From: Escherichia phage vB_EcoM_LNA1
Sequence record: MZ311863.1
Length of the DNA stretch: 64,000 nucleotides
Strand: one strand, 5' to 3'
This document shows, piece after piece, positions 1,385 to 63,778 of this stretch (position 1 is the stretch's first letter; the number at the start of each line of letters is the position of its first letter). The notes beneath the pieces were generated by a model that saw nothing but the letters and a program-made list of their open reading frames with translations, made no database searches and had not been told where the DNA came from. Made by a program: the position numbers and the translations under genes.

Positions 1385-1744
1385 TTATGGGAACAAACAC
1401 TTAATGTCATCGTTTTTGAAAACAAAACTTGTGTAATTATGACCATCAACATCCAGCCAAACAGCCTGAACATCTACACCATCAAGATTTTGGTAAAGCT
1501 CTTTGATGAAGTGGTCTTTTACAATCTGACTGCTAGTTGTTTCCAGCTTAATATTTGAGATTGCTGAACCTACAGCCATATAGCCCATGACACGTTTCTT
1601 CTCAGTATGCTTAATCTTACCATCTTTGTAAGCCATAATGAGATTGGAAAGAATCTTCACACCATAATACTTTTCAAGGTGAGTAGGTACACCATAAAAG
1701 CCTAATGCGAAGTTTTCAGAGTGGATAATGTTTTCACGTTTCAT
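1385..1744 (-). CDS. hypothetical protein
   Basis: 119-aa ORF in operon context. Confidence 0.4.
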   Translation of the reverse strand: MKRENIIHSENFALGFYGVPTHLEKYYGVKILSNLIMAYKDGKIKHTEKKRVMGYMAVGSAISNIKLETTSSQIVKDHFIKELYQNLDGVDVQAVWLDVDGHNYTSFVFKNDDIKCLFP

Positions 1745-4026: not shown

Positions 4027-4280
4027 TTTCTCTTACCACCAATCTCTACGTCGATAACTTGAACATCGCCAGCAACATCAAACTTATGAATGATGCTTTC
4101 CACAGTGTAAGTCCAACCCTCAATGCGAACCAACTCACCTTCTCGTGGGACGATTGGATTACGTTGAGCTACGGTTGTAGTGGAGTGAACAACATCATAA
4201 CAATAGATGTAGTTTACTAAGACTTCCATCGAGAAAACCTCACTCAATAACCGTAGTGTGTGATTGTCCATTTTTGCCAT
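4023..4280 (-). CDS. hypothetical protein
   Basis: 85-aa ORF, overlapping start/stop with neighbours. Confidence 0.35.
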   Translation of the reverse strand: MAKMDNHTLRLLSEVFSMEVLVNYIYCYDVVHSTTTVAQRNPIVPREGELVRIEGWTYTVESIIHKFDVAGDVQVIDVEIGGKRK

Positions 4281-6185: not shown

Positions 6186-6453
6186 CATCTGGTCAATACA
6201 CTCGCAAGGTGTACCAGTTCTCTTATGAACTTCTCCGCATTTCTACGGAGTGTCGGACTATATCACGTAGTAGTAATACTACCGTTGCACTTGGGAATGG
6301 TCATTAGCTTACCACCCTACTCTACTCAGTTCATACATTAAGTATGCTTTTCGATAGTCTCTGAACGTTCCTCTCAAGAGGCTTCGCTGCTGATTACCGT
6401 ATCTTCTCAGACTTAGGCTTCCAGCAATTCACAACGTTTTACATGCGCCACTG
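6186..6453 (-). ncRNA. putative ORF-less group I intron in DNA polymerase gene
   Basis: splits motif B (KNGIYA / LLFGAGDEK); 5' exon ends in U, intron ends in G; intron start cagtgGCGCAtg can pair with exon end uGCGU (U.G at splice site); contains GATATAGTCCGAC resembling the Tetrahymena-type P7 core, then hairpin CTCCGTAGAAATGCGGAG (P9-like). Confidence 0.6.
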
Positions 6454-8596
6454 ACGCATAAATGCCATTTTTGGCTTTCTTACGACCTTTTGTAATCTCG
6501 TGAAGAAGTTCCTCGTCCTGTGTCCCCCTACAACGAACAATATCTTCTTCCTTGTTCAGACCAAAGTAAATACTGTTCAGTGTGTGTGCATCAGTACCTG
6601 TGTAGACTTCGTAGAGGTCATTCTCAGCATCATAACGAAGATACTTATCAGTTTCTGGATTGAGGTACTTATCAAGATGCTTGCAATAGTATCTCCCATC
6701 ATCTTGCTTAGTAAATTCTACAAACTCTTTACCTTCAGTTACCGCTTTGGTGAAGTCTTTATCACCCATAAAGTTACACAGTAAAACAAGCTGTGCAGAG
6801 TTCTGGTCAACAGAAACAATGTTAGTACCCTCTTCACAAATCCACACTTCCCTCATAGGTGCTCCATAGACAGCAGCACCAGATGGTACGTTTACAATAC
6901 CATATTGTGTCATACGTCCAGTTGAAGTACCAAATACCATTGCACCAGCACTAAGGCGACCATCGGGACGAATCTGGTTCAACCAACCTTTTTCATCATC
7001 CTTTGAGTTCTCAATAGTTCTGCGTCGGTGCATCAAAGTATAGTACTTAGCAATCTTCTGTCCAAGCTCACCTTCAATCGTATCATAAGATGATTCAGTA
7101 AGCTTTGGTGAAGTACGGATTAAGCAAGGCTCAAGCAAATCTGTGTATTTCTTCACAGACCAGTTATGCTCAATGTACTGTACACCTTCATGTTCAACAT
7201 AGCTCAAACCACACCGCTCAACCATTTCCTGCCACTTAGGATGTTTTGTAATCATCTTTTTATTGTCTTTGAAACGACAAACTTTGACAGGGCGACCATC
7301 TGAGTCTTTCTTGTAGTTCCAGTCATCTGGAATCCAACCAACTGATTTCAAGTAATCTTTAACAACTGCTACCTGAGTCATACGAGAAACTTCGAACTCA
7401 ATTGGTGTATAAGGTGCATCAATCAAACCTGTGTAGCGACTTGACTCAAGCTCAAAGTGATTAACAACATGGCTGTTATAGTACTTCACAGTTTTAACTG
7501 TTTTTACTGGCTTCCAGTCTTTGCATTTCTTACCAATCTTTGCATTCAACTCATTACAAATTGCACGAGCATCCTTCATTGCTACAAAACCTTCCTTGTA
7601 CTCTTCACCAGTTACAGAGTTGGTTGGTGTATAGCAATTTCTCTTTTCAATGTTAAAAATCTTTGTAGTTGGCTTACCAAATGGTTTGATTTCATAAGTC
7701 TGCATCTCACCATTACGTACCTGCTGACGATACTTTGTCTTAGGATACTTGGTAATTCTCTTCAGTCCATCTGCATGACCAAATGTTTCAACATACTCAT
7801 TCCAAGCTTTTGCAAACTCTTCTCCAGTGACTTTACCTTTAGTCTTAATAGTTGGAGGAAGATGTGGTTCAACTTCTGAAGCAAGCTCATTAGTCAACTT
7901 GTCAAGTTCCTTTACATGGAACTCCATAAGCTCTTTATCAGCTTTCCAACCATTGATAGCCTGTTGACTCATCCAGAAAGATGTTTCTTTAGCTCGCATG
8001 TAGGTTTCATAAGTATCTACGCCACACTTCTTTAGCTTGAGATATTCATTATCCAGTGCGCGTTTAGTTTTGGCGTTAATACGGATATCTTCCACAACAC
8101 GAGTGAAGATTTCTGCATTCCACACACCCCAATGTTCAATCTCTGGTTTACGTACACCAACACGAGCACCCCATGCAGCCAAGCCATGAGCACCTTTATA
8201 ACCTTTTGGAGTTGGTCTATCCATCCACTGAACACGGGACTGGATAAGAGAATCCTGAAAGAAATTACTCCACGGTTTACACTTTGGATTATCAAAGTTC
8301 CATAAATCCGGTGCAATGTGATTGAAAACCCACCAGTCATAACCGAGACCGTTATGGATACAAAGACGTTTTGCCTTTAACGCAAACTCAACACCTTCAC
8401 GTAAGCCACCCTTAATGTACTTAGTGTACTTGTGACCGAGGATAGGCTCATCTGTAAAGACCCATACAGGTGGCTCTTCATCGTCAGATTTATAGTCTGC
8501 AAAGGCCATTACGTGAACTTTAGTGAACTCAAGGAGTAAACCATCAGTTTCTGTATCACCAACCAAATGTAAGTTTTTAAAATCTACGTTTTCCAT
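6454..8596 (-). CDS. DNA polymerase (family A) exon 1: 3'-5' exonuclease domain through first half of motif B
   Basis: VGDTETDGL exo motif near N-terminus; VSVDQNSAQL motif A-like; ends ...RKKAKNGIYA before in-frame stop in intron. Confidence 0.75.
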
Positions 8597-8854
8597 TTTT
8601 TACTCCCTCTAAAACCATTAACCTCATACACTACTGCAAAAAATTATAAAAAGCAAGTTGACAATGCACTTGACAAGGTGTTAATCTTTGCGAAGTGGGT
8701 TTTTACTTAAAAGGTTACTTAACAGTTTAACTATACAGATACTTTAAAACTCTTAAAAGATTATTTAATAGCTTTTAAAAAGCTTTAAAGTATAACGTAT
8801 AGAATACGTTAAGATAAAAGATTAAAACTTAATAGTTACTTAAAAGAGGCTTAC

Positions 8855-11105: not shown

Positions 11106-13083
11106 AGGTCGTAAATTGAAAGAGGCTGGTCAGTTTATTGGTCATTGTGCATGTCCACGTTGTGGTTCATCAGATGCTGGTTCAATCTACCACCATGACG
11201 ATGATTCTTATTCGATGACTTGCTTTAGCTGTAACAAAGGTTTCCCAGAGTGGGATTTTGATAAAGGACAAATCGTGAGCACTTATTCTACTGGTTCAGA
11301 TAATAAAAACCGTACTTTCCGTGGGATGGATTTAGATGATGTAAAAGAAAACCTAGAAGCAATGGACTTGAAAGACAGGAAGATTCCTGCAAAAGTTCTT
11401 GAACGCTTAGGTATCAAGGTTGACATTGATAGTGATGGTGAAATTGATGCACATTTCTATCCAACTTACAAACGTAATGAAGATGGCAAGCTAGAACATG
11501 TTGGCTACCGTGTTCGTCACCGTTACCCAGAAGACCATCCAAAAGAACACCTACGTGGTAAGCTAAAAGACTTTTCAGGTGGTGTTGGAGATATTAAAGG
11601 TGAACTGGCAATGTTCGGTTCATGGATTGCTCCAGAAGGTGGTAACCGTCTATTCATCTGGGAAGGTGAGATGGAATGCGCTACAGCAATCTACATGACT
11701 TCTCTGGCAATTAAAGATAAGTCTCGTCGTAAGAATTACTGTCACGTATCTGTTCCATCAGGTGCAAACATTAAGTCTATCAAAGACAACTATCAGTACA
11801 TCACATCATTTGATGAGATTTACTTGTGCTTTGATAACGATGAAGCAGGTGCTAAAGCTACCAAAGAGGCTGCTGGTATCCTTCCTATTGAGAAGGTTCG
11901 CTTATTCCAGTACCCAGAGGGTGTAAAAGACCTTAACGAATGGTGGACAAAGTTCTATAAAGAGAAAGATACAGTTCTGGAAGGATTTAAGCAGCGTATC
12001 TACAACGCACCTCGTTACTGTCCTGCTGGTATCAAGAACTTTGCAGATGGTTTTGAGGCAATGAAGAATCGTGGTCAGATTCCATTGATTCCTTTCCCAG
12101 AATCTTTCGGAGACTTGAACAGGCTAACTTACGGTGGTTACGGTTTAGGTGAGATTACGACTATTGCAGCACCATCTTCAGTAGGTAAGTCAGCTTACAC
12201 CCGTGAGATGATTTATTCAGCTTGGAAAGAAACTGATTATAATATCGGTGTAATTCCTGTAGAAGATACCTATGAAGAGTTGATGGAGATGCTCTGTGCA
12301 ATCCACCTAAGCAAGCAGATTTCCGAGATTCCTTATGATGAACGAGATTGGGATGAATTAAAGGGAGCACACGCCGAGCTTTCAAAAGGTCGTCGCATTC
12401 ATATCGTTGACCATCAAGGGGCAATTGACCAAGATAACCTGCTGGAGTTTGTTGACTATCTTGTTAATAGTTTAGACTGTAAGATTATCATTCTTGACCC
12501 TATTACGTTGGCTCTGTCACGTTCAGATACGGATGAAGAGGAAGTTTTATCTGAGCTATTGCGTCGTTGCAAACGCTACCAGTATGCACAGGTGAACGTC
12601 TGTCACGTTCGTAAGAGTGCAGGTGGTCAGAAGGCTAACTCCGAAGGTGGAGATATCTCTGAAGAGGATATTAAAGGTTCTGGTGCGTATTTCCAGATTT
12701 CTATGAACAACATTCTGTTAATGCGTAACAAGGTTGACCCAGACCCTGTTAAGAAAAACTTGACAAAAATCAAGTTAACTAAATGCCGTCGTCACGGTAA
12801 GTCAACAGGTATTGCTGGTCATACTTGGTACAATCCAGATACAGGGCGTCTCATTAAAGCCTCTGGTTGTGGAGTTGACATTGATGGTGCAGCAGAAAAT
12901 ATTCGCCAACAGTTTGGTATTGGTGAAGCTGAAGACCATTACGATGACTCTTTGCCACATTATGAGGATGAAGTGTTTGACCGTGAGACTGGTGAAGTCT
13001 ATACTGAAGAGCAGCGTCAAAGCTCAACGATTCCACCTGTATTAAGTGAGGATGCAGATGACTGCCCGTTCGAAACTGAGTGA
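11092..13083 (+). CDS. primase-helicase (T7 gp4-like)
   Basis: 663 aa; N-terminal zinc-binding CPRCGS...CFSCNK, central TOPRIM-like region, C-terminal Walker A IAAPSSVGKSAYT. Confidence 0.7.
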   Translation: MLMSKGRKLKEAGQFIGHCACPRCGSSDAGSIYHHDDDSYSMTCFSCNKGFPEWDFDKGQIVSTYSTGSDNKNRTFRGMDLDDVKENLEAMDLKDRKIPAKVLERLGIKVDIDSDGEIDAHFYPTYKRNEDGKLEHVGYRVRHRYPEDHPKEHLRGKLKDFSGGVGDIKGELAMFGSWIAPEGGNRLFIWEGEMECATAIYMTSLAIKDKSRRKNYCHVSVPSGANIKSIKDNYQYITSFDEIYLCFDNDEAGAKATKEAAGILPIEKVRLFQYPEGVKDLNEWWTKFYKEKDTVLEGFKQRIYNAPRYCPAGIKNFADGFEAMKNRGQIPLIPFPESFGDLNRLTYGGYGLGEITTIAAPSSVGKSAYTREMIYSAWKETDYNIGVIPVEDTYEELMEMLCAIHLSKQISEIPYDERDWDELKGAHAELSKGRRIHIVDHQGAIDQDNLLEFVDYLVNSLDCKIIILDPITLALSRSDTDEEEVLSELLRRCKRYQYAQVNVCHVRKSAGGQKANSEGGDISEEDIKGSGAYFQISMNNILLMRNKVDPDPVKKNLTKIKLTKCRRHGKSTGIAGHTWYNPDTGRLIKASGCGVDIDGAAENIRQQFGIGEAEDHYDDSLPHYEDEVFDRETGEVYTEEQRQSSTIPPVLSEDADDCPFETE

Positions 13084-13339: not shown

Positions 13340-13492
13340 AACACTCTAAAGCATTTGAAAAAGTTTTTGGGGATTCCTTAAAAGCCACTGCTGGTAAACC
13401 AGCAAAATACTATGAAGAGAAGCGTGTAAGAACTGGAAAAACTGCACGTAAAGCAGCTTCTAAAGATAAGCACAACTTCCAGTAATTAATGT

Positions 13493-58267: not shown

Positions 58268-58385
58268 GTTCTACATAGAGACGAAATGAGAGCTTTTCTA
58301 AGATACTGAAAAATATTTTAAAAAAGTTCTTGACAATCACTAAAAAATAATGTTAAAGTGGTTACATAGAGTTTGAAAAGTTTAT

Positions 58386-58462
58386 CTCTGTTTAGCTCAG
58401 CTTGGTAGAGCGTTCCGTTTGGGGCGGTAAGGCCGGAGGTTCAAGTCCTCCAACAGAGACCA
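58386..58462 (+). tRNA. tRNA-Pro (UGG)
   Basis: manual fold: acceptor ctctgtt/aacagag (C1-G72), D-arm gctcagcttggtagagc, anticodon loop tttgggg, T-arm ggagg-ttcaagt-cctcc, CCA encoded. Confidence 0.65.
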
Positions 58463-58469
58463 AATTAAT

Positions 58470-58547
58470 GTTCCAGTAGACAAAATGGTATAGTCACCAC
58501 TCTTTCAAAGTGGATATTTGAGGGTTCAAATCCCTTCTGGAACGCCA
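58470..58547 (+). tRNA. tRNA-Glu (UUC)
   Basis: acceptor gttccag/ctggaac, anticodon arm ccact-ctttcaa-agtgg, T-loop ttcaaat. Confidence 0.6.
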
Positions 58548-58552
58548 GTTTT

Positions 58553-58630
58553 GACAGAAGACCAATTACAGCAAACTTAATCTTATTCATCTGAAGGTAA
58601 ATCGGACAAAGAAGAGATTTGGTCTGGTCA
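58553..58630 (+). repeat. inter-tRNA repeated element (copy a)
   Basis: gACAGAAGACCaaTTACAGCAA ... tttGGTCTGGtca; same 5' and 3' motifs recur in 3 further units. Confidence 0.5.
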
Positions 58631-58638
58631 TTAAGAAT

Positions 58639-58715
58639 TGCGGGTATAGAGAAAGGGCGTCTCACATGTCTCATTAGCATGGTATCGGCAGGTTCGACTC
58701 CTGCACCCGCCTCCA
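58639..58715 (+). tRNA. tRNA with CAU anticodon (Met or Ile2-type)
   Basis: D-arm gaga-aagggcg-tctc, anticodon arm catgt-ctcatta-gcatg, T-arm gcagg-ttcgact-cctgc; acceptor pairing imperfect, exact ends uncertain. Confidence 0.5.
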
Positions 58716-58720
58716 AATTT

Positions 58721-58790
58721 TACAGAAGACCGTTTACAGCAATATTTATTAAATTTTTAGCGGAAAAATTGAAAGATACGGTCTGGTAAT
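58721..58790 (+). repeat. inter-tRNA repeated element (copy b)
   Basis: tACAGAAGACCgtTTACAGCAA ... acGGTCTGGtaat. Confidence 0.5.
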
Positions 58791-58799
58791 ACTAAATAT

Positions 58800-58876
58800 G
58801 GTTAGGAAGCACATAAGGTATGTGCGGTCGCCTGTTAAGCGAATGGCACAGGGTTCGAATCCCTGACTAACCGCCA
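58800..58876 (+). tRNA. tRNA-Asn (GUU)
   Basis: anticodon loop ctgttaa, T-arm caggg-ttcgaat-ccctg, acceptor ggttagg/actaacc, CCA encoded. Confidence 0.65.
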
Positions 58877-58885
58877 AATTTAAAT

Positions 58886-58973
58886 GTGTCGTTATCCCGT
58901 AGATGGTAGCGGTGGGGACTGTAAATCCCTTGTCATTGAGACTCGGTAGGTTCGACTCCTACACGGCACACCA
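58886..58973 (+). tRNA. tRNA-Tyr (GUA), long variable arm
   Basis: 88 nt; anticodon arm gggga-ctgtaaa-tccct, T-arm gtagg-ttcgact-cctac, acceptor gtgtcgt/acggcac. Confidence 0.6.
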
Positions 58974-58994
58974 ATTTTGATAGGGCTACTTAGC

Positions 58995-59030
58995 CCCTCC
59001 CTTAAAGGGTTCTTACGAGTATCCTTTAAA
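58995..59030 (+). repeat. palindromic element AAGGGTTCTTACGAG..TCCTT (copy 1)
   Basis: cccttaaagggttcttacgagtatcctttaaagg; second copy at 62443. Confidence 0.5.
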
Positions 59031-59032
59031 GG

Positions 59033-59112
59033 AGCAGAAGACCAAATACAGCAAGTTACTTAAAATTTCAAGCCAATTTAATTTTGAAAAATTTAAAACT
59101 TGGTCTGGCTCA
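59033..59112 (+). repeat. inter-tRNA repeated element (copy c)
   Basis: gagCAGAAGACCaaaTACAGCAA ... ttGGTCTGGctc. Confidence 0.5.
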
Positions 59113-59120
59113 ACAAATTT

Positions 59121-59258
59121 ACAGAAGACCGTTTACAGCAAAACTTAAACAATCTATTTCTCGGTAAAGAAAAGGCGAAGATTCGACTCCTTCACTCGGC
59201 AGATGTCGAGTTGGTGTAATGGTAGCACTTAAGATGATAAACAACGGTCTGGTAATTA
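59121..59258 (+). repeat. inter-tRNA repeated element (copy d) containing tRNA-like fragments
   Basis: ACAGAAGACCgtTTACAGCAA ... T-arm-like gaagattcgactcctt and hairpin actcggcagatgtcgagt ... acGGTCTGGtaat. Confidence 0.45.
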
Positions 59259-59401
59259 CCTTTGTAGGTGAGCTATTAAGCTTACCTGTGAGTATGCGAC
59301 CACAAAGGGTGAAAGGGTAAATTCTAGATTTAAACCCAAAAAGGCACATCACTACAGACCTTAAGCAAGTCTGGGTAGCTTATCTACAAAGATAATTTAA
59401 T

Positions 59402-59477
59402 GGAAGTGTAGCAGAATGGTGATGCGGCAGACTTTTAATCTGACAGGCGATGGGTTCGATTCCCTCCACTTCTACCA
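59402..59477 (+). tRNA. tRNA-Lys (UUU)
   Basis: anticodon loop cttttaa, acceptor ggaagtg/cacttct, T-loop ttcgatt, CCA encoded. Confidence 0.6.
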
Positions 59478-59481
59478 ATAT

Positions 59482-59558
59482 GGTTCAGTCGCAGATAAGG
59501 TAATGCAAGGGTCTCATAAACCCTATGAATGTGGGTTCGATTCCCATCTGAACATCCA
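59482..59558 (+). tRNA. initiator tRNA-fMet (CAU)
   Basis: anticodon arm agGGt-ctcataa-aCCct with three consecutive G-C pairs, and 1-72 mismatch (G.A): both are bacterial initiator hallmarks. Confidence 0.6.
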
Positions 59559-59560
59559 AT

Positions 59561-59636
59561 GCTGTGAAAGCACATATGGATGTGCATTCGGCTGATAACC
59601 GAAAGGCAGAAGGTTCGAATCCTTCTCACAGTACCA
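59561..59636 (+). tRNA. tRNA-Ile (GAU)
   Basis: anticodon arm ttcgg-ctgataa-ccgaa, T-arm gaagg-ttcgaat-ccttc, D-arm gcac/gtgc. Confidence 0.65.
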
Positions 59637-59651
59637 ATTTCAATAAAGTTG

Positions 59652-59680
59652 TTGACATTGAGATGTGACTACTTTATACT
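59652..59680 (+). promoter_or_regulatory. strong sigma70-consensus promoter
   Basis: TTGACA-17 nt-TATACT; followed by about 200 nt with no ORF before next tRNA. Confidence 0.55.
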
Positions 59681-59884
59681 AACCTTAGTTTTCGTTGCGT
59701 AGCGTCTATTTTGCAAATTTAAAATAAATGCAAACGACAATGTTTTTCTGGCAGTAGCTTAATAGGCTAAACACCAGTGAGGTCTTCCAATCCCTCATCA
59801 AAGAATTTGGCGTACTCGCCCACGGTATGGTTAATAAGGTGGGCATCTTTAAGGGCTTTCTAAGAGAGTCTTTAAAGATAATTA

Positions 59885-59966
59885 CGGGGCGTATCTCAGC
59901 TGTCTTCTAAACAGCCGTTAACCGAGTAAGTGGAGTATGCGGGTTCGAGTCCTGCCGCCTCGACCA
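59885..59966 (+). tRNA. atypical tRNA-like gene (possible Arg UCU-type hairpin)
   Basis: good 7-bp acceptor cggggcg/cgcctcg and T-arm gcggg-ttcgagt-cctgc with CCA, but internal arms non-canonical; hairpin gctgt-cttctaa-acagc looks like an anticodon arm. Confidence 0.35.
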
Positions 59967-60115
59967 ATTTAGTTAGCAGATTACTTAGACGACCTAAGCG
60001 GGTCTTCCTGTAGGGAGGTGGTCTGTATCTCATGTTTTCCAGAACATGTAAATAATCTGAGAAGGGGCTTTACAGTGTTGAGATAATACGGTAAGCTTCG
60101 AATTATAGTTTTAAT

Positions 60116-60186
60116 AGGGGTGAGCTATGGCAGCAATAGAGTCTCCAAAATTCTTGATTAGAGTTCGAATCTCTCCACCCCTGCCA
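60116..60186 (+). tRNA. tRNA-Trp (CCA)
   Basis: starts aggggtg, anticodon loop ctccaaa, ends caccccctgcca; closely parallels E. coli tRNA-Trp ends. Confidence 0.7.
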
Positions 60187-60200
60187 GAACAGGTGCTTGT

Positions 60201-60605
60201 ATGAAACTTTGTAGAAAATGTTCTCAAGAAAAGCCTTTAAGCTGCTTTCATAAAAGGGGTAATGGCTATCAGTCTGCTTGCAAAGATTGTAAAGCTAAGT
60301 ACTCAGCAAAGAGATACAAAGAAGACCCTACTTATAAAGCAAAAAGAAAAGTTAGGGCAAAATATGACAAAAAGAGGAACAGAGAGTTCCTTAGTAGATA
60401 TAAAAAGTTTTGCAAATGCAGGATGTGTGGCGAATCTGAGCCAGTAGCTTTGGATTTTCATCACTTAGACCCTAAAGAGAAAGATTTTGCTCCAAGCAAT
60501 CTTAAAACTTACTCTAGAGGCACTATTAAGCGTGAAGTCCGTAAGTGTGTTGTGCTTTGTTCAAACTGTCATAGGAAAGTTCATGCAGGACTGTTAAGTA
60601 TTTAA
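60201..60605 (+). CDS. HNH endonuclease inside tRNA cluster
   Basis: 134 aa; Zn-ribbon CRKC...CKDC and DFHHLDP...CSNCHRKVH HNH motif. Confidence 0.6.
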   Translation: MKLCRKCSQEKPLSCFHKRGNGYQSACKDCKAKYSAKRYKEDPTYKAKRKVRAKYDKKRNREFLSRYKKFCKCRMCGESEPVALDFHHLDPKEKDFAPSNLKTYSRGTIKREVRKCVVLCSNCHRKVHAGLLSI

Positions 60606-60618
60606 CAGTCTTATTAGG

Positions 60619-60706
60619 GGTAGGTAGCGGCTAATGGTAGCCAAACTGTCTTGAAAACAGTTGCCACTGTAGAGATACGGTGAGGGTTCGACTCCTTTAC
60701 TTACCG
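60619..60706 (+). tRNA. tRNA-Ser (UGA), long variable arm
   Basis: 88 nt; anticodon arm actgt-cttgaaa-acagt; long variable arm; T-loop ttcgact; CCA not encoded. Confidence 0.6.
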
Positions 60707-60962
60707 CCTAATAAGATTTTAAAGCCAAGCTTCATTCGGATGTCGCTTTGGTATCCCTCGTGTTGTCTAACACATTGATAAAACACCTAGTAGGTGTCAC
60801 GGAGAAGAGATAATATCAAGCTCTCCAAAGGTTCTAGTCGCCGGATTAAACAAGACTATGCAAAGACCTTTTTAGGTCTTTTTAGAGGGCTTCTAAGGTT
60901 ATTACAGCTTGTTGTGGAACCTTGTTGCTTAGGTTCTTAGAAGTTCTCTAAAAAGATTTAAT

Positions 60963-61040
60963 GGGAGATTGATGGTAATTGGTAAACCTATCTCGCTTAG
61001 AACGAGATGTTTGAGGGTTCGAATCCCTTGTCTCCTACCA
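60963..61040 (+). tRNA. tRNA with UAG anticodon (Leu-type) but short variable arm
   Basis: anticodon arm tctcg-cttagaa-cgaga; T-arm gaggg-ttcgaat-ccctt; discriminator A; class I length. Confidence 0.5.
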
Positions 61041-61047
61041 AATTAAT

Positions 61048-61123
61048 GCAGGTGTAGCAAAATGGTTATGCGGCTGACTCTTAATCAGTAAGACGATGGG
61101 TTCGAATCCCTCCACCTGTACCA
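61048..61123 (+). tRNA. tRNA-Lys (CUU)
   Basis: paralogue of 59402 tRNA; anticodon loop ctcttaa. Confidence 0.55.
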
Positions 61124-61129
61124 AACATT

Positions 61130-61205
61130 GGGGATGTAGTTTACATGGTTAAAACATAAGTTTTGCAAACTTAAGTACAGGGTTCAATTCCCTGCTTCTC
61201 CACCA
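61130..61205 (+). tRNA. tRNA-Ala (UGC)
   Basis: G3.U70 wobble in acceptor (Ala identity element), anticodon loop ttttgcaa, ends ctccacca. Confidence 0.7.
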
Positions 61206-61211
61206 ATTAGT

Positions 61212-61286
61212 GCATCCATAGTTTAAACGGGAAAATTACAGTCTTCCAAACTGAGGTTGAGGGTTCGATTCCCTCTGGATGCTCCA
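61212..61286 (+). tRNA. tRNA-Gly (UCC)
   Basis: acceptor gcatcca/tggatgc, anticodon loop cttccaa, discriminator U. Confidence 0.65.
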
Positions 61287-61292
61287 AATAAT

Positions 61293-61369
61293 GCTGCTTT
61301 CGTATAATTGGCTATTACACATCCCTTGTAAGGATGGAAATGCAGGTTCGAGTCCTGTGAGCAGCACCA
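61293..61369 (+). tRNA. tRNA-Thr (UGU)
   Basis: anticodon arm catcc-cttgtaa-ggatg, T-arm gcagg-ttcgagt-cctgt. Confidence 0.65.
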
Positions 61370-61371
61370 AT

Positions 61372-61462
61372 TCAGAGGTCAAGTGAAAGACCGCTGGTGT
61401 CAACTGAAGACCGTAACAAATTCCACGGAGTTGAGTTAGCGGCACAACTTCAGACCTCTTTC
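61372..61462 (+). ncRNA. candidate structured non-tRNA element
   Basis: terminal inverted repeat cagaggtc...gacctct; contains ctGAAGACCGTaACAaA related to the inter-tRNA repeat motif. Confidence 0.3.
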
Positions 61463-61464
61463 AT

Positions 61465-61539
61465 ACTCGCTTAGTTTATATGGTAAAATATCACCCTTAC
61501 AAGATGAAGAAAAAGGTTCAAGTCCTTTAGTGAGTACCA
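61465..61539 (+). tRNA. tRNA-Val (UAC)
   Basis: anticodon loop cttacaa, T-arm aaagg-ttcaagt-ccttt, acceptor actcgct/agtgagt. Confidence 0.55.
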
Positions 61540-61540
61540 T

Positions 61541-61618
61541 GTTCCAGTATCCCAATTGGCAGAGGATGCAAGCTCAAACCTTGTATTAGTGACGGTTCGA
61601 ATCCGTCTTGGAACACCA
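61541..61618 (+). tRNA. tRNA with CAA anticodon (Leu-type) but short variable arm
   Basis: anticodon arm gcaag-ctcaaac-cttgt; acceptor gttccag/ttggaac shared with the Glu tRNA at 58470; discriminator A. Confidence 0.45.
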
Positions 61619-61637
61619 ATTTTAAGAGGCTATTTAG

Positions 61638-62195
61638 ATGAGATATTTGAAGTATGCTTCATGGATTTTCCTAGCTTTACTAGAACCATTTGCAGCAGCC
61701 CTAGCAGTCATCTTAGCACCTTTCGTAGTTCCATTCTACAGTGAGAAGAAAGGGCATCTACCTTTTGGATTCAGATGGATGGAGACCTATGACAACCCGA
61801 TTGATGGTGATGAAGGCCACGTTAAAAGATGGGCTAAGATTAGAAAGATTGGTAAGCTGGGTGTCTACATGCAGAGAGTTGGATGGCTCTGGAGAAACAA
61901 AGCTTATAACTTCTCTTACCATGTATTAGGAAGAGATGTAAAAGGTGTGACTAAGTGGAAAGGTAATATCAACGTAAGTTCTGACCCTGAAGATAATCAG
62001 ACAGGTTATCTCCTAATGTGGAACAGTAATGCTTGGGGATTATTCGCTTTTATCCCATCAATTAAAGTCTTTGGTAAGCAGTTTTACTGGAGAATTTATG
62101 TTGGATGGAAACTAAAAAGCGTTGTCCCAGAAGAGAGAGCATTCTCAAGGGAAAGAGTTATGTTGGCATTCTTTATTCATCCACTGAGAAAGTAA
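61638..62195 (+). CDS. hypothetical membrane protein
   Basis: 185 aa; N-terminal hydrophobic helix WIFLALLEPFAAALAVILAPFVVPF; embedded in tRNA cluster. Confidence 0.4.
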   Translation: MRYLKYASWIFLALLEPFAAALAVILAPFVVPFYSEKKGHLPFGFRWMETYDNPIDGDEGHVKRWAKIRKIGKLGVYMQRVGWLWRNKAYNFSYHVLGRDVKGVTKWKGNINVSSDPEDNQTGYLLMWNSNAWGLFAFIPSIKVFGKQFYWRIYVGWKLKSVVPEERAFSRERVMLAFFIHPLRK

Positions 62196-62203
62196 AGATT
62201 TAA

Positions 62204-62279
62204 AGGGGATTAGTTTACAAGGTTAAAACCTCGGTCTTTGAAATCGAAGAAGTTGGTTCAATTCCAACATCCCCCGCCA
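62204..62279 (+). tRNA. tRNA-Gln (UUG)
   Basis: anticodon arm tcggt-ctttgaa-atcga, T-arm gttgg-ttcaatt-ccaac. Confidence 0.55.
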
Positions 62280-62281
62280 AT

Positions 62282-62360
62282 GCTCCATTACTCCAATTGG
62301 CAGAGAGGCCAGACTTAAAATCTGTGTTATGTATCGGTTCGAATCCGATATGGAGTACCA
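62282..62360 (+). tRNA. tRNA with UAA anticodon (Leu-type) but short variable arm
   Basis: anticodon loop cttaaaa, T-arm atcgg-ttcgaat-ccgat, discriminator A. Confidence 0.45.
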
Positions 62361-62365
62361 ATTTT

Positions 62366-62441
62366 AGCGGTATAGCATAACTGGCAATGCAGCAGTCTCT
62401 GAAGCTGTCCTATTAAGGTTCAAATCCTTATGCCGCTGCCA
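62366..62441 (+). tRNA. tRNA-Gln (CUG)
   Basis: anticodon arm gcagt-ctctgaa-gctgt, T-arm taagg-ttcaaat-cctta. Confidence 0.55.
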
Positions 62442-62442
62442 C

Positions 62443-62470
62443 TTCTAAGGGTTCTTACGAGAGTCCTTAA
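62443..62470 (+). repeat. palindromic element AAGGGTTCTTACGAG..TCCTT (copy 2)
   Basis: cttctaagggttcttacgagagtccttaaatg. Confidence 0.5.
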
Positions 62471-62471
62471 A

Positions 62472-62547
62472 TGTGGCCTTATCATAAATGGTAATGACCC
62501 ATGCTGTGAACATGGTCTATACGGGTTCAAATCCCGTAGGTCACCCC
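62472..62547 (+). tRNA. tRNA-His (GUG)
   Basis: anticodon arm ccatg-ctgtgaa-catgg, discriminator C, T-arm acggg-ttcaaat-cccgt; no encoded G-1 seen. Confidence 0.6.
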
Positions 62548-62552
62548 AATTT

Positions 62553-62629
62553 ATAGTCCAAGTAGCTTATATGGTTAAAGCGCGTGTCTGAAAAACATGA
62601 GAAGAGGGTTCAAATCCCACTGGACTACC
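62553..62629 (+). tRNA. tRNA-Phe (GAA)
   Basis: anticodon arm cgtgt-ctgaaaa-acatg, acceptor tagtcca/tggacta; 3' end assignment uncertain. Confidence 0.55.
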
Positions 62630-62646
62630 AATTTCAAAGGTGCTTA

Positions 62647-63381
62647 ATGAAAGAGATGACAGAACAAGGTAAGGAGATTTTTAATCTCTTAAAAACCGGT
62701 AAAGGGTTTTCTAACCCGCTTATTACTGGTGCAGCAGTTCTCGGTGGAACCGTAGCTGCCTCTACATCACTTGTAAGCTCTATTAGCTCTGTAACAGACC
62801 CTACAATAAAAGATAAGCTTGTTGCTGCTGGGCTTACAACAGTCCTTCTAAACAGCTTTACAACAAGCCTTACAAGCACTACAGCAACTACTAAGACCCT
62901 AACAGACTACGGTCAAAAGTCTATTGATGAGTTTTCATCACGTATGCAGGTAGCAAAGGGATACTCCAATGTTATGGGTGCAGCAGGGGAACAAGTTGGT
63001 TGTACACCATTCAGTGGTATTATGGGTGTTGCTACAGAGTATGGTCAAAAAGCTATTGGCATGATGAACAGTACACTAGATAGTGTTAATGGTGTGTTAA
63101 GTGACTTGCAAGACGCTATTGATGAGGGTCTTGATACTGTTTCTGATTTAGCTAATCAAGCTGTTAGTAAAATTAATGAAGGCATTTCAAAGATTACAGC
63201 TTATGCAGATGAAGTTGTGCAGATGATTGAAGAAGAAGCTGCCCTTATTGCAGAGTACCTTAAAACGAATATTAATGGGTTCTTAGCAGGTATCTTACCA
63301 GACTGGTTTGATGATGCCTGTAAAACTGGTGTAATTGACACTATTGCAACACCAGAAATGAAGAGCGCATTACAGAAATAA
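62647..63381 (+). CDS. hypothetical Ser/Thr-rich protein
   Basis: start moved to internal Met (MKEMTEQG) because the 5' part of the ORF overlaps tRNA-Phe. Confidence 0.4.
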   Translation: MKEMTEQGKEIFNLLKTGKGFSNPLITGAAVLGGTVAASTSLVSSISSVTDPTIKDKLVAAGLTTVLLNSFTTSLTSTTATTKTLTDYGQKSIDEFSSRMQVAKGYSNVMGAAGEQVGCTPFSGIMGVATEYGQKAIGMMNSTLDSVNGVLSDLQDAIDEGLDTVSDLANQAVSKINEGISKITAYADEVVQMIEEEAALIAEYLKTNINGFLAGILPDWFDDACKTGVIDTIATPEMKSALQK

Positions 63382-63382
63382 T

Positions 63383-63475
63383 GGAAGATTAACCCTAAAA
63401 GGTAAGGGAGCAGTTTGCTAAACTGCCAGTAGCTGAGAAATCGGTGTACCAGTTCAAGTCTGGTATCTTCCTCCA
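63383..63475 (+). tRNA. tRNA-Ser (GCU), long variable arm
   Basis: 93 nt; anticodon arm gcagt-ttgctaa-actgc, 21-nt variable arm, T-arm accag-ttcaagt-ctggt. Confidence 0.65.
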
Positions 63476-63480
63476 ATTTT

Positions 63481-63556
63481 GAATCCGTGACAGAAATGGA
63501 TATGTGCCTGTCTGCAAAACAGGTTTATAAGGGTTCAAGCCCCTTCGGATTCTCCA
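63481..63556 (+). tRNA. tRNA-Cys (GCA)
   Basis: anticodon arm cctgt-ctgcaaa-acagg, discriminator U, acceptor gaatccg/cggattc. Confidence 0.65.
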
Positions 63557-63778
63557 AGTTATTTTACTCTCTCTCAATTAAAATAATAATAATGCCCTGC
63601 TATAAGTATTCTTCCTTTCGCTACCGAAGAGTATTTTTAGACAGGGCTTTTTTACAGAGTTATACTTTATAAGAAGCCTTATACAGTATGTCTCTGACGT
63701 ACATTGTGGTTTCTCCTTGACGGTCTCTGTGCCGTCTTTTTTAAGGGGAAACAAGATTAATTATTTGGAGAAAACATA

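Follow-up and report, generated by a model that had tools for sequence, protein, structure and literature searches.

A conserved, apparently undescribed family of phage-borne candidate arginine tRNAs with a non-cloverleaf core

An atypical tRNA-like gene in a Felix O1-type phage

We analysed a 64,000-nucleotide (nt) stretch of the genome of Escherichia phage vB_EcoM_LNA1 (MZ311863.1; hereafter the window), in which an 82-nt candidate arginine tRNA gene occupies positions 59885–59966 of the plus strand (Table 1). The window comes from a Felix O1-type phage, with region 58300–63600 being 95–97% identical to Salmonella phage FSL SP-107, to Escherichia phages VpaE1 and wV8, and to Felix O1. A preliminary description of the element, made from the sequence by eye, listed a 7-base-pair (bp) acceptor stem, a T-arm with a UUCGAGU loop, an encoded CCA and a perfect anticodon-like hairpin (anticodon UCU) preceded by 7 nt and followed by 23 nt. 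Direct reading placed every one of these parts exactly as described, and the alignment to the Rfam tRNA model (RF00005) agreed. Without CCA, the element is 79 nt long and has the standard 7/5 acceptor/T configuration. Like a tRNA, it has a 7-bp acceptor stem with discriminator and 3′ CCA, a T-arm with the UUCRA consensus and an anticodon arm with a 5-bp stem, a 7-nt loop, U33 and a purine at position 37. Its UCU anticodon reads AGA and, via wobble, AGG. What it lacks is a D-arm between position 9 and the anticodon arm: UAUCUCA (59892–59898) is all that separates the acceptor and anticodon stems. The spacer between anticodon stem and T-arm (59916–59938) ends in a 12-nt D-loop-like strand.

Searches with existing tRNA models reflected this architecture. 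ARAGORN made no call at 59885–59966, and Infernal with RF00005 returned a marginal 31.2 bits (gathering score 29; E = 0.015 for the whole window), matching the acceptor, anticodon and T-arms and deleting the D-arm. In this alignment, 15 D-arm model positions were replaced by 4 nt and 20 nt were inserted in the variable region. A standard D-arm found by a covariance model had been named in advance as the outcome that would overturn the manual fold; neither the Rfam model nor ARAGORN recovered one in the element, and the manual fold was right. None of the other Rfam 15 families came near threshold at the element. Identity as tRNA-Sec was rejected (RF01852, 23.3 bits against a cut-off of 47; 7/5 configuration; no covarying variable-arm hairpin), as were transfer-messenger RNA (tmRNA) in normal or permuted form (12.2–23.1 bits against a cut-off of 47; no tmRNA found by ARAGORN) and small nucleolar RNA (matches far below threshold). 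A covariance model of the family described below scored the element at 98.8 bits (E ∼2e-24), far above what chance would give, and separated members (81–103 bits) from canonical tRNAs (≤36 bits).

Because there is no ordinary D-arm, standard tRNA finders and genome annotations overlook the family. In the ∼250 deposited genomes, the element is mostly unannotated or overlain by a coding sequence labelled ‘hypothetical protein’ or ‘HNH endonuclease’ (e.g. EU877232 wV8, FR775895 phi92, JF461087 FO1a), and a few records label it ‘tRNA-OTHER’. Published tRNA counts of carrier phages leave out tRNA-Arg(UCU). In some records a 45-amino-acid minus-strand open reading frame (ORF; 59896–60033) appears here as ‘hypothetical protein’. 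We rejected this protein-coding reading because conservation does not extend past the tRNA ends and substitutions compensate one another.

Table 1. Parts of the 82-nt element and other features of the window
Feature	Position	Strand	Description
Acceptor stem, 5′ strand	59885–59891	+	CGGGGCG, nt 1–7; pairs with CGCCUCG, 7 bp including one G-U
Connector	59892–59894	+	U8-A9-U10; U8 and A9 invariant, position 10 U in 110 of 118 members and C in 8; all three left free by the search patterns
Helix X, 5′ strand, plus A14	59895–59898	+	C11-U12-C13; A14 opposite C39, mostly non-Watson-Crick
Anticodon arm	59899–59915	+	Stem GCUGU/ACAGC (59899–59903 and 59911–59915), loop CUUCUAA (59904–59910), anticodon UCU at 59906–59908
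3′-side bulge/linker plus C39	59916–59923	+	CGUUAAC; between anticodon stem and helix X
Helix X, 3′ strand	59924–59926	+	G40-A41-G42, the first GAG
D-loop-like single strand	59927–59938	+	UAAGUGGAGUAU; in variable-loop position; G48 G49 at 59932–59933, A50 at 59934; second GAG at 59933–59935
T-arm	59939–59955	+	GCGGG-UUCGAGU-CCUGC; 5-bp stem, 7-nt loop, canonical T54-Psi55-C56-R57-A58 pattern
Acceptor stem, 3′ strand, discriminator and CCA	59956–59966	+	CGCCUCG, discriminator A59963, encoded CCA 59964–59966
Sigma-70-type promoter-like site	59652–59680	+	TTGACA-17 nt-TATACT; 11 of 12 consensus matches, ∼205 nt upstream of the element; conserved in phage Ro111lw
tRNA-Trp(cca)	60116–60186	+	150 nt downstream of the element; only 71 nt, 29.8 bits on the Rfam tRNA model
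tRNA-Met(cat)	58639–58715	+	ARAGORN call; unmatched by the Rfam tRNA model even with E up to 1
tRNA-Tyr	58886–58973	+	Matches the tRNA-Sec model only, weakly (29.6 bits)
ORF among tRNA genes	60201–60605	+	
ORF among tRNA genes	61638–62195	+	
ORF among tRNA genes	62584–63381	+	
Group I catalytic intron (RF00028)	6233–6516	−	61.5 bits (cut-off 50); distant from the tRNA cluster

An essentially phage-confined family with a covarying core helix

By BLAST, 251 of 50,697 deposited phage genomes carry at least 80% of the 82-nt unit, at 84–100% identity, with sharp gene boundaries and across unrelated genera. Identity is 95–100% in Felixounaviruses and 84–88%, confined to the 82 nt, in unrelated groups, namely phi92-like Justusliebigvirus, Asteriusvirus and other jumbo phages, T5-like Klebsiella phages, Mydo/KNP2-like phages and Streptomyces phages. 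The carriers infect Proteobacteria, Actinobacteria and others. BLAST together with pattern scans of viral, metagenome and genome collections yielded 180 loci with 118 distinct sequences, of which 111 measure exactly 82 nt, after pattern false positives had been discarded (loci L014, L032, L046, L049, L073 and L084; 14 of 18 genome-contig matches; 103 of 105 matches to a UAU pattern). In 185,579 species-representative genomes of bacteria and archaea, the element turned up on only four contigs, all from metagenome-assembled genomes; 5,426 complete E. coli genomes and 72,556 plasmids had no copy. It is thus a family found essentially in phages only. Of the 118 members, 88 encode CCA and nearly all have G or A as discriminator; the T-loops read UUCGAnn or UUCAAnn. 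Divergent members recognised by the family covariance model (L086:2103-2182, L079:13348-13429, L071:2689-2766 and L217:3849-3928) keep the architecture with shorter linkers. At L086:1458-2182 (also in L195), a member is broken off inside the T-stem by an insert of ∼570 nt and followed by a second, divergent but complete copy; the insert contains a Cys-rich reverse-strand ORF and may be a homing-endonuclease-type insertion with a duplicated target.

Neither Rfam nor the openly searchable full-text literature yielded an account of this architecture. In a catalogue of candidate viral RNAs, the entry ‘DNAVirus_2961’ sometimes overlaps ARAGORN tRNA-Arg calls and may correspond to the family (PMC10690425). 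These are conserved, phage-only and apparently undescribed candidate arginine tRNAs.

The secondary structure was supported by compensatory changes. In an alignment of 40 distinct sequences, 94.8% of the cells in a four-helix structure were paired, and 17 of 21 pairs varied on both sides. The covariation score of 0.778 compared with 0.19 for shuffles (0 of 500 reached 0.778) and 0.10–0.14 for controls with slid partners. Both-sided changes occurred in all seven acceptor pairs (99.3% of cells paired) and in three of the five T-stem pairs (99%). In the anticodon stem, four of five pairs covaried, enclosing a loop, CUUCUAA, that is identical in 91 of the 118 members. A tRNA pseudogene in decay, or a tRNA-like sequence arisen by chance, could look much like the single window copy, with no ARAGORN call, a marginal Rfam score, a folding energy like that of shuffles and mostly no GenBank annotation. 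We give this reading practically no credence, as it is refuted by 118 distinct fixed-length sequences from unrelated lineages and environments, whose four helices change in a compensatory way and whose core is invariant.

Across 111 sequences, the top mutual-information pairs were exactly the acceptor, anticodon and T stems plus a fourth helix, termed helix X, which joins nt 11–13 with 40–42 and encloses the anticodon arm. Helix X had zero mismatches in these sequences, its columns having been free (N) in the search patterns. Pair 11–42 was an invariant CG, pair 12–41 was UA (71), GC (21), AU (16) or CG (3), and pair 13–40 was CG (89), GC (11), UA (9) or UG (2), with at least 11 different helix sequences in the family. 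The adjoining pair 14–39 (AC 64, CA 18, AU 11, CG 9, UG 4) recalls the canonical 26–44 hinge pair. The 3′ partner in helix X is the first GAG, whereas the second (nt 49–51) is invariant without covariation. The minimum-energy fold from ViennaRNA instead pairs CUC (11–13) with the second GAG and breaks the anticodon stem. Covariation rules this fold out, because G49 A50 G51 never change, whereas positions 12 and 13 do, in concert with the first GAG.

Since nt 11–13 pair with 40–42, the anticodon arm lies inside the would-be D-loop. The strands run in the order acceptor 5′ strand, U8 A9 U10, helix X 5′ strand, A14, anticodon arm, linker CGUUAAY(C), helix X 3′ strand, UAAnUGGAGUAU, T-arm and acceptor 3′ strand, with UAAnUGGAGUAU an invariant D-loop-like strand standing in for the variable loop. 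C32 of the linker is likewise invariant, though fixed by no search pattern. Given helix X, the molecule is not simply armless: it has a D-stem-like helix in another topology, followed by a D-loop-like UGGA strand. Of the three options raised by the preliminary description, a D-armless tRNA came closest, but the description overlooked the pairing within the 23-nt stretch. A tRNA with an insertion found no support, as this stretch is the most conserved part of a fixed-length family.

These features are compatible with an L-shaped fold. The anticodon stem (5 bp), the 14–39 pair, helix X (3 bp) and perhaps U10–U43 would stack into ∼10 layers, giving an arm similar in length to the canonical anticodon-plus-D stack. 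From its end, UAAnUGGAGUAU would run to the T-stem, presumably supplying the GG for T-loop docking. G48 G49 would then be the counterparts of G18 G19 and dock on U61 C62 of the T-loop, and A50 would sit where arginyl-tRNA synthetase (ArgRS) reads its identity base A20.

Arginine identity and the case for a translating tRNA

Escherichia phage Ro111lw carries a canonical tRNA-Arg(tct) in exactly this slot. The flanks of Ro111lw and the window are ∼99% identical up to ∼35 nt upstream, identity returns at the CCA, and the downstream sequence is near-identical, so that the two differ by a clean allelic cassette exchange. The alignment diverges at ∼60110, at tRNA-Trp(cca), itself an atypical and variable tRNA gene. 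ARAGORN found 24 tRNAs in the plus-strand cluster of the window, none for Arg or Asp. At the same time, AGA, among the rarest codons in enterobacterial hosts, accounts for 27.5% of the Arg codons, or 10.9 per 1000, when 52 long ORFs from the window are counted. In the 82 loci compared, the accompanying canonical Arg tRNAs carry acg, gcg, tcg, cct or ccg, and the element is the only UCU-bearing tRNA in phages with 15–28 tRNAs. Outside the element, ARAGORN called tct only in L039 and L079; in L011 and L080, what it called tct overlaps the element itself. The 98-nt call in L079 overlaps the divergent rewired copy there (13348–13429), the main-type member of that locus being CCU. A standard-length canonical tct gene and a UCU member occur together just once, in L039, where a 77-nt tRNA-Arg(tct) adjoins a rewired UCU member (1522–1598 and 1611–1692, minus strand).

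The anticodon had been left unconstrained in the search pattern that yielded the 118 members. It is UCU in 106 of them, ACG in five, CCU in four, UCG in two and ACU in one; 117 members thus have Arg anticodons, drawn from both arginine codon boxes, and the ACU exception still has C35 and U36. C35 and U36/G36 are known ArgRS determinants, and the window element has C35, U36 and discriminator A. Furthermore, UGGA (U47 G48 G49 A50) occurs in every Arg-anticodon member, divergent ones included, and is replaced by UGGU in two further sequences with anticodon UAU (Ile AUA reader). According to the account given in PMC12475279, which cites Shimada 2001, A20 is a major ArgRS identity element. The UGGA/UGGU split is the pattern expected if A50 is this base. 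The two UAU sequences (L163:3368-3451 and L302, IMGVR_UViG_3300002856_000088) have the rewired architecture, and between the two every helix shows compensatory changes. In L163, the copy sits 10 nt upstream of a main-type Arg(UCU) member. The rewired scaffold may therefore carry a second identity. The ACU member (L154, OGWC01005896.1, 121–202, minus strand) is otherwise typical, with the loop CUACUAA. It would read Ser AGU, and more codons if A34 were deaminated, and may reflect a mutation or a sequencing error, or else be a recoding tRNA. Some contigs carry pairs of members, and L159 (Ga0255783_10000721) carries three (4102–4183, 8598–8679 and 11201–11282, minus strand; anticodons CCU, UCU and ACG), so that the whole Arg isoacceptor set found in this phage is on the non-cloverleaf chassis.

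On these sequence comparisons, the element is probably a working phage tRNA-Arg(UCU) with a non-cloverleaf core: Arg-restricted anticodons, allelic replacement and AGA demand without another tRNA-Arg make a translating tRNA-Arg(UCU) the best explanation. We infer that it is expressed and charged. It would be transcribed together with the phage tRNA cluster, this part of which the promoter-like site upstream may drive, mature through its canonical acceptor/T-arm minihelix and encoded CCA, be charged by the host ArgRS and decode the phage's abundant AGA codons.

The same evidence bears on whether the element might instead be a decoy, as the preliminary description had also considered, that is, a tRNA-shaped sponge that titrates a host factor (a tRNA-Arg-directed anticodon nuclease, a modification enzyme or ArgRS) and takes no part in translation. 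That phage tRNAs can counter immune tRNases is established (PMC10264068, PMC12475279), the anticodon loop equals that of canonical tRNA-Arg(UCU), and the unusual core might block ribosomal use. We nevertheless regard a decoy as unlikely. Sister phages exchange the sole tRNA-Arg(UCU) gene at this locus, allele for allele, with the canonical form; the element fills a missing UCU slot in phages that are otherwise rich in tRNAs and, in the window, use AGA heavily. Four different Arg anticodons occur on the scaffold, and, as expected of a charged tRNA, the element retains acceptor stem, discriminator, CCA and the A that follows GG.

A charged tRNA could still deliver the wrong amino acid. The altered core might cause an AGA/AGG reader to be charged poorly or with a non-arginine residue, for phage-directed recoding or mistranslation, considering that the rearranged core is the seat of many identity and anti-determinant features and that the ACU member and the two UAU relatives reveal anticodon shifts on the scaffold. 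This we consider quite improbable. The C35 and U36/G36 determinants are kept across the Arg-anticodon members, the A right after GG is present in all of these and lost exactly in the UAU members, and an allelic exchange with canonical tRNA-Arg in near-identical genomes would be lethal if the amino acid differed.

The neighbourhood of the element was inspected as well. Of the three ORFs among the tRNA genes, one matches an HNH endonuclease weakly and below threshold (17.6 bits; cut-off 21.4), and the other two have strong matches to DUF7338 and DUF7217. In related records, HNH endonucleases are annotated in the tRNA-cluster region, which could explain the turnover of tRNA cassettes. The atypical tRNA-Met and tRNA-Tyr genes (Table 1) indicate that several tRNAs of the cluster deviate from the consensus. 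Viral tRNA-like structures with non-translational roles exist, and with small ORFs interspersed here, including the HNH-like one, the element might serve as a primer, as an RNA for packaging or regulation, or as a signal for the processing of adjacent transcripts. Such a role is very unlikely, given that no common neighbouring gene was apparent across the very different carrier phages in a comparison by eye, that the conservation boundaries are the exact tRNA ends, and that the anticodon repertoire tracks one amino acid. Overall, a decoy, a mischarged tRNA, another RNA role and a pseudogene are each much less likely than tRNA-Arg(UCU).

Several observations nonetheless weigh against a tRNA-Arg(UCU) built around helix X. 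The folding energy of the single sequence equals that of shuffles (z = −0.14). RNAalifold predicted three helices only, not helix X, which has only three reliable pairs and is energetically neutral (+1 kcal/mol on average by nearest-neighbour energies); the RNAalifold and energy results make the support for helix X purely comparative. Such a lack of energetic support would be nothing out of the ordinary where tertiary contacts hold a core helix in place, yet it counts as a weakness. In the large set, the invariance of GUUAA, GUAA and UGGAGUAUG is partly imposed by the search patterns; the core, including GUUAA and the D-loop-like strand, is likewise conserved in pattern-free BLAST matches from unrelated phages. 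The one ACU member and the two UAU relatives mean that the scaffold is not absolutely Arg-specific. Finally, the L039 pair indicates that canonical and rewired forms are not strictly exclusive; they can coexist and may not be fully redundant.

Why the core might have been rewired is more speculative. Colicin D-type tRNases are known to cut all tRNA-Arg isoacceptors. In some phages several Arg isoacceptors have been replaced by the rewired scaffold. That the scaffold is almost Arg-exclusive, phage-only and has moved between unrelated phages suggests pressure on the tRNA-Arg body. Tentatively, and as the rationale that we favour, the rewired core may have been selected for escape from host or phage enzymes that recognise this body, such as colicin D-type tRNases. 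Immune nucleases deplete specific tRNAs, and phage tRNAs differ from those of the host in the D-loop or anticodon loop (PMC10264068, PMC12475279, PMC12409363). In its fullest form, which we put forward as a possibility with considerable doubt, the element would belong to a phage-exclusive, topologically rewired chassis that is charged by ArgRS, read by the ribosome, carries four Arg anticodons and rarely UAU, and has spread horizontally since it is invisible to tRNases that recognise the D-arm or elbow. The enzymes evaded might, on this doubtful proposal, be host immune tRNases or phage host-shutoff nucleases. Were the proposal true, and we hold it to be the less probable case, no conserved class of non-cloverleaf elongator tRNAs would have been known outside organelles before this one.

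For cytoplasmic-type translation, the cloverleaf is regarded as universal, and its known exceptions are, to our knowledge, organellar tRNAs that need co-evolved partners. If the element is charged and used, reordered core strands are no obstacle to bacterial ArgRS, EF-Tu, RNase P and ribosomes, which is relevant to the question of what specifies the L-shape and to orthogonal tRNA design. Sequenced phages in their hundreds (among them relatives of Felix O1, wV8 and phi92, and therapeutic candidates) would then have an unannotated tRNA-Arg, so that their tRNA complements and codon-adaptation analyses would be wrong and tRNA finders would need a new model, and the Arg-restricted, phage-only distribution would point to selective pressure on tRNA-Arg. 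Near-isogenic Felixounaviruses offer natural allele pairs of canonical and rewired forms.

Comparison with known tRNAs and tRNA-like structures

The closest reference is canonical tRNA-Arg(UCU), as in the Ro111lw allele and E. coli argU. The element shares with it the loop CUUCUAA, a 7-bp acceptor stem, a G/A discriminator, an encoded CCA, the UGGA motif and, in the case of the Ro111lw allele, the slot itself; anticodon stem and T-arm are very similar. Unlike canonical tRNA-Arg(UCU), it has no D-arm after position 9, closes a D-stem-like helix 3′ of the anticodon arm, places the UGGA strand at the variable-loop position and has a fixed length of 82 nt with CCA.

The nearest structural analogues are animal mitochondrial tRNAs that lack the D-arm, e.g. 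mt-tRNA-Ser(AGY/UCU), in which the connector and the region 3′ of the anticodon stem also lengthen or replace the D/anticodon domain and which still act as elongator tRNAs (PMC7609411). These tRNAs are organellar, short (about 55–65 nt) and flexible, have often lost the D-loop/T-loop contact and need adapted partners. The phage family, in contrast, is longer than a standard tRNA, has a perfect T-loop, a GG strand and a highly conserved core, and would have to work with ordinary bacterial ArgRS, EF-Tu and ribosomes. With 79 nt without CCA, a covarying 3-bp helix, a 12-nt D-loop-like strand and a phage-encoded gene, the element does not belong to the mitochondrial type. Phages and viruses go unmentioned in a 2020 review of non-canonical tRNAs (PMC7609411).

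tRNA-Sec, tRNA-Pyl and allo-tRNAs (PMC5389517, PMC7609411) are likewise natural departures supported by covariation, some of them from phage or metagenome data and missed by tRNA finders. They change stem lengths (8/4, 9/3 and 9/4; 8/5 in bacterial tRNA-Sec) and keep the cloverleaf order, whereas the element has the standard 7/5 and a changed order of core strands. Phage tRNAs that evade immune tRNases (T5 against retron and PARIS effectors; mycobacteriophage; PMC10264068, PMC12475279, PMC12409363) resemble it in that an isoacceptor duplicates a host function with an altered tRNA body, a parallel that makes a selective rationale plausible; they differ by point substitutions in a normal cloverleaf, compared with the whole core topology in the element, and our data link no tRNA-Arg-directed nuclease to the family. 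Plant-virus tRNA-like structures and the tRNA-like domain of tmRNA also reach an acceptor/T-arm with elbow by a non-standard strand topology, but they lack a decoding anticodon arm or form part of larger RNAs, whereas the element is a free-standing gene of tRNA size. Judged by its sequence, the element would work like a tRNA-Arg, yet it lacks the D-arm that defines the cloverleaf and stands outside the tRNA-Sec/allo-tRNA and tmRNA families.

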